The notes below the pieces were generated by a model that was given only the letters and a program-made list of their open reading frames with translations, ran no database searches and was not told the DNA's origin. From Dictyostelium discoideum (taxonomy: Eukaryota): DNA of 64,000 nt. Positions 42,446-45,072 of the stretch are shown one piece after another. Numbering within the stretch: position 1 is the stretch's first letter; the number at the start of each line of letters is the position of its first letter. The stretch is taken from assembly GCA_000004695.1 (NCBI GenBank), contig CM000151.3, forward strand, positions 7,904,001 through 7,968,000. Direction: 5' to 3'. The position numbers and the translations under genes were made by a program.

Positions 42446-44797
42446 TTAAGTAAATTTAATATTATAATATTGTTTATTAATTTCAGCTTCACCTTTTCTT
42501 CTTGAAATATCTTTCTTTCTACCACCTTCAACAAATGATTTATGAACATTTTTCATTTTATAGAAAACTTGAATTTCATCATCAGTTGCAGCTTTTTCAA
42601 CTCTTTGTTGTTTATTCTTTATACAAGTGATTAATGGAGCTTCCATTTCTTCTCTTAAGACTTCAAAATTATAGAATTCTTCCCATTGTTCATCAGTATT
42701 ACAAAGAGAACGAATTAATTTTGTGGCTGCTTTAAGATGAAGACGAGATTCCATATACTCTTGTTGTTGAGCTATTTTAGCAGCTTGTTGAGTGAATGCC
42801 ATTGCCAAAATTGAAATATTTGCATTGGAAGTTGATGTATTGAAATCTGGTGTTGCTTGGAGTTGTGCACTGACAACACGTAAACAACGTACACCATCCA
42901 ATTTGGTATATTTAATTTGAATTTGGAATGGATAGATTTGGACAAACTCTGTGGGTCTGTTTCTTGAGGAATAGAGGAGTGTTAAATCAGTTAGGGAATT
43001 GACATTTGGGAATTGTTTAACTACTCTACTTAAACCTTGTTTACTATCGTATTTATTGATTTCCAAAGTTGGATGAAGACAAATACTCATCTCGACATCT
43101 GTTGCAATCATTGGATTTTGAGTTAACTTTCTAATTTCTCTTGCTAATTCCAATGGATGAATAATTGTGATATTACCATTTGTTTGTTCTGAAACTTTAC
43201 CAATTACACCTAAATCAATATGACTACCACTGATACCAATGATATTAATTGTTGTTTTATTATTTTGAGCTAGTTTTGTAACTTTTTCATAAAACTCTTG
43301 AGCAGGACCCAATGGAAGGTCTTCAATTGCACCCAAACCAACATTTGGTACACCATCAGTACAAATTACAACTTCACTCAACATTTTTTGACTTGCAATT
43401 GCAGCACTAACTAATAATGCTGGACCTAATGCAGTTGATTGAACTGGTTCTAATGATTTGATTTTTGCTTTTAAGAAATCACTTGAACCAGATGCAGTTG
43501 GTAATTTATCATAGGTCATTGAACGACCAATTTCAATGAGTTGGTCGAAATCTTCCAATTTATCACCTGCAATTACAATTGGACCATCAACTGAATTACT
43601 TTGAGTGTAAATCATAACCTCGTCAGAGAATGTGACTAATACAACCCTTTTATTTGGATACTGAATTGAAAGACGATCAATCATTGTTGGAATTGATGAT
43701 TGAACACATTCTAATCTTGAAATATATGATGGACCACTAGATGCACCTTTTACACCTTTTTTAGCATTTACCCATTCACTTTGTAATGATGGTACTTCAG
43801 TTGTAATACCCATTGAACCTGAGACATCAATACAGTAAATAATAATTGACTCTTCTCTTTTTGATCCATCAGTTGTTGACGATGTTGATGGTGATGATAA
43901 AACATATTCAACAGAATCTTTATTTGGTATTTCACCTTGTTCTAATAAAATATTGCTGTTACTATATTTACAGAATTCACATTTCCATGTGAAACTATCG
44001 TCACCAGTTTTAACTAAATTTGAAAATCTACTTAAAATAACATTACAACCTTGACAATAAACACAATCACCTGTAATTAATGGTACCTCCTTTGAAAGAT
44101 TTGACATTGAATATGATAGAACATTTGCTTCTAATCTATTTGTTGAAATTTGTCCTGTACGATCAATTGTTGATGGTGAAGCTGCTTGTTGTGGTGATGG
44201 TTGTTTATCTTTACCTGAAAAGATTTTATTAAATAATCCAGTCTTTCCTGACGATGATGAGGAAGATGATGAGGATGATGATGATTTTTTATTTAGACTA
44301 CCACCAATTGGTGGTAAACCAGAGATTGTGACTTGTTTACGATAACTATCTTCAATTGTTGGATCATACTCTTCAACAAAATGATTTTGAATGAATTGAA
44401 TGATAATTGCAGATTTACCAACACCACCACCACCCATTACAACCACTTTGTAAACTGTATTACGTGGTGTGTGACGAACCAATGTAAAGAATGCCTCCTC
44501 AATATTAGATCTAGTTTTAGCAGATGTCTCAATATATGGAACACGTAATGATCTTGCCAATTGGTCTGCTTCAATTCTTGATACTTGTCTTCTTGATTCT
44601 AAATCAACTTTATTACCAACAATAATAATTGGTACATCATCACGATCTTTAACTCTTTCAATATGTTGTTTTAATTGTGAAACTTCTTCAAATGATGATC
44701 TACTATCAATTGAAAATACAATCATAAAACAATCACCAGTTCTAACATATTGATCACCTATAAATAAATAAAATATATAATAAAAACATATTTTTTA

Positions 44798-44831
<34 letters not shown>

Positions 44832-45072
44832 GTGTGATTAATAAATAAAACTTACGCATTGCTGAATATTCTTCTTGACCAGCAGTATCTAAAATATCTA
44901 AAAGTACAGCTTCACCAAAACCTTTTGATGATGAAGATGAACCAGAATTATTTACAAATGATTTTTGAATTGTATCAGTTGTTGTCGTTAAACTCATTTC
45001 ACTTTGTGTGAACCATTCTTTTGGTTTATCAAGATTTGATGTTATATATACATATTTAGTTGGAAATTCCAT
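42446..45072 (-). CDS. Circularly permuted Ras-like GTPase (cpRAS) fused to a zinc-ribbon-like Cys cluster and a VWA domain. Two exons: 44856..45072 and 42446..44757.
   Basis: Exon 1 ends ...GFGEAVLLDILDTAGQEEYSAMR (Ras beta3 and G3), with donor GTAAGT. Exon 2 continues DQYVRTGDCFMIVFSIDSRSSFEEV...VPIIIVGNKVDL (G4)...YIETSAKT (G5)...EEAFFTLVRH. This is followed in the same ORF by YKVVVMGGGGVGKSAIIIQFIQNHFVEEYDPTIEDSYRKQVTISG (G1 P-loop and switch I/G2). That is a canonical Ras sequence with residues about 1-48 moved to the C-terminal side. After it come CVYCQGCN...CEFCKYSN and a VWA domain with the MIDAS motif DVSGSM. Intron 44758..44855 (98 bp), TAG acceptor, in phase. Confidence 0.85.

Follow-up and report, generated by a model that had tools for sequence, protein, structure and literature searches.

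The 64,000-nucleotide stretch of Dictyostelium discoideum DNA analyzed here (the window; contig CM000151.3, positions 7,904,001-7,968,000, assembly GCA_000004695.1) carries a gene that is very probably cpras1, encoding CPRas1, a protein in which a circularly permuted Ras domain is inserted into a Sec23/24-like module. The gene is real and intact, and its family has already been known since 2008, when its publication demonstrated a second type of circularly permuted GTPase (Elias and Novotny, Biol Direct 2008, 3:21; PMC2430557). The gene itself therefore adds nothing new, and its value is that of an uncharacterized, patchily yet widely conserved Ras-family switch in a genetically tractable organism. 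Several refinements reported below, namely the full scaffold, the inserted G domain, the intact MIDAS (metal ion-dependent adhesion site), and an un-permuted variant in Archamoebae, can serve as hypotheses for a first functional study.

Structure of the Gene and Its Product

The window is strongly AT-rich and has poly-Asn coding tracts, a character that is Dictyostelium-like. Two exons on the minus strand (45072..42446) encode a product of 842 amino acids in the spliced model, somewhat longer than the 830 residues given in a first-pass annotation of this DNA.

42446..45072, minus strand: whole cpras1-type gene, start to stop codon; 842-residue product, 98% identical to D. discoideum protein P0001
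44856..45072, minus strand: exon 1, 217 nt (residues 1-72 plus 1 nt), opened by an ATG at 45072
44758..44855, minus strand: 98-bp intron, GTAAGT...TAG, with a long A-run; its splicing restores the conserved SAMRDQY, also present in the independently annotated P0001
42446..44757, minus strand: exon 2 (residues 73-842 plus the stop codon, 42448..42446)

Exon 1 ends in ...GCAATGC/GTAAGT and the intron in ...TTTATAG, and the in-frame splice rebuilds the Ras sequence EEYSAMR/DQYVRTG. The 98-bp intron that had been proposed to follow the G3 motif is thus borne out as a GT..AG intron at 44855..44758. The open reading frame of exon 2 runs for 759 codons, unbroken across the boundary between the Ras and VWA parts, and no DNA repeats were found inside the gene except AT-rich low complexity. 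Within the intron, at 44800-44835, the coding strand has about 30 A residues in unbroken succession. A homopolymer as long as this is prone to length errors or polymorphism, but none of it is coding sequence.

When the product is compared with P0001, which comes from another D. discoideum strain, 829 of 842 residues are identical, with 10 substitutions and three one-residue gaps. Most of these differences fall in the N-terminal half, and just one position differs in the C-terminal 540 residues.

A Complete Ras Domain in Permuted Order

The product matches H-Ras in two swapped pieces when the two are compared by BLASTP. Residues 53-177 align with H-Ras 48-171 (59% identity, E 6e-46), and residues 173-219 align with H-Ras 2-48 (79% identity, E 7e-22), giving an overall identity of ~65%, within the range of 60-70% that the first-pass annotation had estimated. 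The G motifs consequently follow one another in the order G3-G4-G5-G1-G2, with DTAGQ starting at residue 62, NKVD at 121, SAK at 151, GGGGVGKS at 181, and YDPTIEDSY at 203, so that the suggestion of Ras residues of about 1-48 having been moved behind residue of about 165 is upheld. The extension in front of the domain, put at about 50 residues, comprises the 52 residues that precede strand beta3. Both the Pfam Ras match (E 1e-53) and the match to the closest solved structures, which are H-Ras chains (PDB, E 2e-60), are likewise split into two stretches. The G2 motif is of the Ras-family TIE type (PTIED at 205-209) and does not carry the Rho, Rab, or Arf signature.

44462..44916, minus strand: cpRAS segment B, beta3 to alpha5 (residues 53-171, corresponding to H-Ras 48-166), split by the intron
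44875-44889, minus strand: G3 DTAGQ, in segment B
44603-44614, minus strand: G4 NKVD, in segment B
44516-44524, minus strand: G5 SAK, in segment B
44318..44458, minus strand: cpRAS segment A, beta1-alpha1-beta2 (residues 173-219, equivalent to H-Ras 2-48), from BLASTP, the structural model, and the alignment
44411-44434, minus strand: G1 P-loop, in segment A
44342-44368, minus strand: G2/switch I YDPTIEDSY, in segment A

Conservation within the family was judged on an alignment of 61 sequences. The P-loop, DTAGQ, NKxD, SAK, and the full effector loop (Y-D-P-T-I-E-D) are invariant in this alignment, and the equivalents of G12, G13, and Q61 are conserved. Helix alpha5 runs into strand beta1 by way of a short "TPR" junction, which is conserved and adds virtually no linker. 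The beta2-beta3 turn is kept at both ends of the domain, as "DDGxTC" before beta3 and "IxG" after beta2. For structure prediction, P0001 was used in place of the window product, and the resulting AlphaFold2 model predicts a permuted but complete Ras fold, in line with the idea that such a fold is reconstituted from the permuted order.

Compared with canonical Ras proteins (H-Ras and RasG-type), the domain is alike in its overall identity, its identical effector loop, its full set of G motifs, and its fold, but its segments are permuted, its termini lie at the beta2-beta3 turn, it has no hypervariable tail or CAAX box, and it is embedded in a chain of 842 residues. The C-terminus of the product reads ...QYYNIKFT and lacks a Cys. 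Classification as a canonical Ras small GTPase, with motifs in the order G1-G5 and a CAAX box, was accordingly rejected.

The YRG/YlqF/YjeQ (RsgA) proteins are also a natural circular permutation of a P-loop GTPase, but they form an ancient ribosome-assembly family that is not Ras-like. Their motifs run G4-G5-G1-G2-G3, the chain being opened between beta3 and alpha2 (PMC2430557). Membership of the window protein in this group was considered and set aside, given that G3 comes first and that the Pfam RsgA_GTPase score is 27.1 bits against a cut-off of 30; this sub-threshold match reflects only the shared G4...G1 order. A closer comparison is offered by DdiCPRas2, which has the same permuted Ras domain inserted in a larger host. 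That host differs, being alpha-2-macroglobulin/COG2373-like and 3933 residues long (PMC2430557), and it is not encoded in the window.

The C-Terminal Half Is a Sec23/24-Like Module

Beyond the GTPase and a linker, the C-terminal half comprises a Sec23/24-like module in full: first a zinc finger, then a VWA trunk whose MIDAS is intact, and finally a beta-sandwich followed by a helical region. The scaffold parts of the protein, including a motif at the very N-terminus that is discussed in the following section, are as follows.

45010..45072, minus strand: conserved N-terminal motif (residues 1-21, MEFPTKYVYI...E19), part of the scaffold and not of the GTPase
44171..44317, minus strand: low-complexity linker (residues 220-268, poly-Ser) with a conserved G....LF motif; predicted local distance difference test (pLDDT) <50
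43940..44170, minus strand: pre-finger strands (TNV-type motif, invariant N284) and Sec23/24-type zinc finger (residues 269-345)
43970-44056, minus strand: invariant C307, C310, C332, and C335 (CQGC...CEFC, 61 sequences)
43115..43852, minus strand: VWA or Sec23-24 "trunk" domain (residues ~375-620) with a complete MIDAS
43814-43828, minus strand: MIDAS D383-x-S385-x-S387 (DVSGS at 383)
43433-43435, minus strand: MIDAS T514
43355-43357, minus strand: MIDAS D540
42848..43114, minus strand: beta-sandwich domain, Sec23_BS-like (residues ~621-709)
42449..42847, minus strand: helical region and C-terminal tail (residues ~710-842), in which K821 is invariant and R826 nearly so; also a QYY motif, but no CAAX

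A VWA domain with an intact DxSxS motif had been claimed in the first-pass annotation, and the whole MIDAS set is in fact conserved, with D383, S385, and S387 kept in at least 90% of the aligned sequences and T514 and D540 invariant. The cluster of Cys residues noted there is also present, although the conserved quartet is C307/C310/C332/C335 and not one that begins with the CVYC at residue 304.

Evidence for the module as a whole comes largely from relatives. Pfam finds zf-Sec23_Sec24, Sec23_trunk, and Sec23_BS in this order in ten diverse relatives, with several matches above the gathering score (finger, 30.2, 28.4, and 25.9 bits versus 25; trunk, 34.3, 29.1, and 28.0 bits versus 27), and the window protein's own matches of this type are sub-threshold. 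When the C-terminal half alone is compared with the PDB, Sec24A is the sole significant family (E 2.5e-5), matching over trunk and beta-sandwich, and the finger aligns weakly. Neither Gelsolin nor Sec23_helical gives a Pfam match in the window protein or in the 10 relatives, and only ~130 residues, all helical in the model, follow the beta-sandwich.

Sec23 and Sec24, inner-coat proteins of coat protein complex II (COPII), have the order of zinc finger, trunk, beta-sandwich, and helical region in common with the window protein. They differ in that the latter shows no gelsolin match, retains its MIDAS, and carries a GTPase that is Ras-like and covalently inserted, not a Sar1 acting in trans.

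A VWA domain with a MIDAS, a beta-sandwich, a helical bundle, and an associated zinc finger also recur in archaeal ArnB/ArnA, in bacterial VWA proteins (4fx5), and in RING-VWA proteins of the WAV3 type. ArnB has a MIDAS, and the WAV3-type RING E3 ligases share an ArnB-like fold. All of these lack a GTPase, and ArnA/B is a two-chain system driven by phosphorylation. A RING is found in WAV3-type proteins and in some CPRas relatives but not in the window protein. Specifically, a C-terminal C3HC4 RING occurs in a subset of CPRas proteins (from Willaertia, Physarum, and environmental sequences; P0119, P0036, P0043, P0033, P0078, and P0095), and its presence in Naegleria members was noted in 2008 (PMC2430557). 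The RING-bearing clade hints at a link to ubiquitin ligases.

The GTPase Is Inserted Within Its Host Protein

The N-terminal region of CPRas proteins was originally described as poorly conserved and without recognizable homology (PMC2430557). The region examined here instead carries a conserved motif that is common to Ras-less paralogues. Its family consensus is MEFGSxFVY followed by an acidic tract, and E19 is kept in 54 of 61 sequences. In the full-length model, which has a whole-chain predicted template modeling score (pTM) of 0.87, the motif forms beta-strands with pLDDT values of 96/82. When residues 1-223 were modeled by themselves, the G domain was retained at pLDDT 92-98, while residues 1-30 fell to 47-51 and the strands were lost. 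Because the motif is ordered only with the C-terminal half present, it seems to be packed against the C-terminal module.

With the C-terminal half as the query, an exhaustive HMMER search yielded 1930 relatives, and 106 of the 125 new representatives from this search are without both the P-loop and DPTIE. Such Ras-less relatives come from dictyostelids and other Amoebozoa as well as from molluscs and annelids. Among 70 complete-looking examples, the strict form of the N-terminal motif heads 34, and a looser one heads 44, with an acidic tract after it in each case. As controls, the motif was sought in small Ras proteins (0/120) and in CPRas proteins (75/120).

The host protein is thus composed of the N-terminal motif, finger, VWA domain, beta-sandwich, and helical region, with cpRAS lying in a variable linker between the N-terminal motif and the pre-finger strand. 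Since the motif belongs structurally and evolutionarily to the scaffold module, the GTPase is an inserted domain and not an N-terminal fusion. The earlier description of a Ras domain "fused" to a VWA domain holds insofar as both are in a single chain, but "inserted into" is the better term. The alternative that this extension is what degeneration has left of a second beta1-alpha1-beta2 segment, produced by duplication, was rejected, as the same motif stands at the head of Ras-less paralogues.

Some database records of these relatives need care. Several of the supposedly "Ras-less" representatives are in fact CPRas gene models that have been truncated (among P0246, P0253, P0255, P0256, and P0257), and one of the Pecten maximus records P0285/P0021 looks like two tandem CPRas genes fused in one model. 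Public annotation has the related problem that a Ras-less paralogue has been automatically named "circularly permutated Ras protein 1-like".

Membership in the CPRas Family

CPRas1-type proteins, of which DdiCPRas1 (EAL68747.1) is the founding member, were published as having the motif order G3-G4-G5-G1-G2, the TIE motif, an N-terminal region of 40-66 residues, a linker, and a length of ~840-970 residues, and their C-terminal part contains a putative four-Cys zinc finger and a VWA or "Sec23-Sec24 trunk" domain (Elias and Novotny 2008; PMC2430557). The window protein is like the published CPRas1/cpRAS-VWA protein in species, motif order, TIE motif, N-terminal extension, linker, four-Cys finger, VWA trunk, and length, and it corresponds feature by feature to the cpRAS family with a C-terminal VWA region that the first-pass annotation had named.

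Full-length, collinear matches were obtained to proteins named CPRas1-like. The identity is 98% for P0001, 91% for D. citrinum and D. dimigraforme, 72% for D. purpureum, and 55-62% for other dictyostelids. More distant relatives come from other Amoebozoa, which had been named as a place to look for the same permutation, and from Capsaspora, Heterolobosea, sponges, echinoderms, molluscs, annelids, brachiopods, hemichordates, and amphioxus. The name "circularly permutated Ras protein 1-like" is in use for relatives in NCBI and UniProt, and the family is thus routinely annotated. Its distribution was described in 2008 as patchy, covering Amoebozoa, opisthokonts, and Naegleria (PMC2430557), and according to a paper from 2026 it was possibly present already in the last eukaryotic common ancestor.

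G3 precedes G1 in 107 of the 120 closest homologues, and transcript-derived complete open reading frames are among the permuted ones (e.g., from Clastostelium and Oscarella). That the permuted Ras and VWA parts share one mRNA is therefore supported at the transcript level, in relatives. Together with the unbroken frame of exon 2, this speaks for a single gene and not for separate mRNAs encoding a truncated Ras and a VWA protein. An assembly error that joined two ras copies is likewise excluded because the permuted order is common to so many of the closest relatives. More generally, it is vanishingly improbable that the locus is a misassembly, a gene-model fusion of two ras pieces with a VWA gene, or a decaying pseudogene, given one reading frame across the Ras/VWA boundary, a canonical in-frame intron, the lack of internal repeats, a shared order in homologues from independent genomes and transcriptomes, and functional motifs that are all invariant.

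Origin of the Permutation and a Canonical-Order Variant

The first-pass annotation favored duplication followed by truncation as the route to the permuted order. This route stays plausible, but no local relic of it was found, there being neither another ras-like gene in the 64-kb window nor a DNA repeat within the gene. The duplicated beta2-beta3 turn corresponds to an overlap of 1-2 residues between the aligned H-Ras ranges, which is a small footprint compatible with duplication and then truncation and is the sole trace found. Adjacency of the domain's termini was considered as a reason for the permutation and rejected, as the termini of canonical Ras are also adjacent (in cpRAS, alpha5 joins beta1 with virtually no extra linker) and as a canonical-order domain has been inserted in this very position in Archamoebae.

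This canonical form was seen in five CPRas-like homologues (P0053, P0062, P0066, P0056, and P0067), two of them from Pelomyxa schiedti, one each from Mastigamoeba balamuthi and Mastigella eilhardi, and one from a metagenome; the named species are all Archamoebae. In these proteins, H-Ras 2/3-161..183 aligns in one contiguous piece with 57-69% identity. The canonical-order domain occupies the equivalent place, with the N-terminal motif before it and the linker, finger, and VWA module behind it as in the permuted proteins, and the G....LF motif of the linker is also present. No report of a canonical-order CPRas in Archamoebae was found in the literature searched. The two orders within the same host protein constitute a natural pair for asking what permutation does to a switch.

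The direction of the change was addressed with a simple-distance neighbor-joining tree of the scaffold half (100 bootstraps), which was rooted with Ras-less paralogues after truncated CPRas models had been left out. The outgroup was monophyletic in 96/100 replicates. The archamoebal clade was recovered in 100/100 and was sister to all permuted forms in 0/100; it joined Acanthamoeba and Balamuthia in 37/100, and the root adjoined the RING-bearing CPRas clade in 67/100. Judged from these sequences, the canonical order in Archamoebae is probably secondary, arising either by reversal or by domain replacement. A tree of the Ras domain, intended to separate re-permutation from replacement, gave 58% bootstrap for its best relevant split with a sample of small Ras proteins that was biased toward the query, and only three alignment columns discriminate between the two, with mixed states.

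Possible Mechanisms

There is perhaps a little less than an even chance that the G domain functions as a GTP/GDP switch whose coupling to the scaffold is in cis. That it would cycle between GTP and GDP is suggested by the invariance of the nucleotide-binding and catalytic motifs and of the whole Ras effector loop. Through the permutation, the chain would leave the domain on both sides at the beta2-beta3 hairpin, where the strands running to switch I and switch II have their far ends. Because exits at this position tie the inter-switch strands to the scaffold, the switch face may be held against or beside it. The nucleotide state could then gate binding by the scaffold, via the MIDAS or other surfaces, or the scaffold could regulate GTP hydrolysis. 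Such an arrangement would be a cis version of Sar1-GTP working with Sec23/24 in trans. The MIDAS might bind an acidic ligand, either in trans or in cis, and a catalytic or regulatory contact could involve K821 and R826 in the tail. Membrane anchoring in the style of Ras is not expected because the protein is without a lipidation signal.

A broader reading, in which Ras was inserted in an ancient scaffold of the Sec23/24-ArnB type as a Sar1-like regulator of MIDAS interactions and Archamoebae later returned the domain to canonical order by reversal or replacement, is offered more tentatively. Neither the insertion and regulator proposal nor this archamoebal change was found in the searchable literature.

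Sec23 is both the effector of Sar1 and its GTPase-activating protein (GAP), and its arginine finger is supplied by the gelsolin domain. Since no gelsolin domain was detected here, the analogy with Sar1 and Sec23 is only partial, and this is one of several points that weigh against the picture drawn above, from identity to mechanism. Identity with the published DdiCPRas1 entry rests on species, architecture, and length, and the exact 842-residue sequence has no match in the protein collection, which is attributable to the strain-level differences from P0001. The comparison of full-length and truncated models is one of AlphaFold confidence, with a shallower alignment for the latter (31 versus 60 sequences). 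In addition, archamoebal relatives with a canonical Ras at the same site indicate that the family can do without the permuted connectivity, and no functional study of the CPRas family was found in the literature searched.

The strongest competitor, though itself unlikely, sees the G domain as a normal Ras acting in trans, with RasGEFs, RasGAPs, and effectors of the Ras-binding domain or Ras-association (RBD/RA) type, and the scaffold as a mere cargo, localization, or assembly platform with no coupling in cis. An effector loop (YDPTIEDSY) that is identical to that of Ras and invariant in the family would be expected of such a protein, as would the retained equivalents of G12, G13, and Q61, which are those of a GAP-dependent GTPase; moreover, the archamoebal forms reveal that the protein can persist through a change of connectivity. 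Set against this are the whole-chain pTM, which favors a fixed arrangement of domains over beads on a string, the insertion of the G domain within the scaffold's own chain, and the lack of a membrane anchor toward the usual sites of Ras signaling.

A function in membrane traffic, as a COPII-like coat or a Sec24-type cargo adaptor with a built-in GTPase in place of Sar1, is quite improbable. Fold and sequence similarity to Sec23/Sec24 extends over the whole module, and Sec23/24 functions with a small GTPase. The protein nevertheless has no amphipathic helix, no myristoylation or prenylation signal, and no gelsolin domain match, and it retains an intact MIDAS, the Thr and Asp of which are aligned with Ser and Thr in Sec24A. 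Furthermore, the same fold serves in non-trafficking roles, such as those of ArnB and the WAV3-type E3 ligases, and the RING of some members points to ubiquitin signaling and not to coats.

Neighboring Genes

The window gives no sign of a functional gene cluster around cpras1, and the neighbors are unrelated housekeeping or regulatory genes. A plus-strand open reading frame for 361 residues, at 41233-42318, converges on the 3' end of cpras1 across a gap of ~128 bp; its product gives no Pfam match and is marked by very long stretches of poly-Asn, poly-Asp, and poly-Ser/Thr. Other open reading frames lie at 1630-3351, 5800-7113, 23670-26066, 32707-35058, 37454-38662, and 56366-58159, and the types encoded are an ARS2-like protein, a glycerate kinase, a cyclin, an FNIP-repeat protein, an SLBP-type histone-hairpin-binding protein, and a protein kinase. 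A gene for tRNA-Thr(AGU) is located at 32345-32416.

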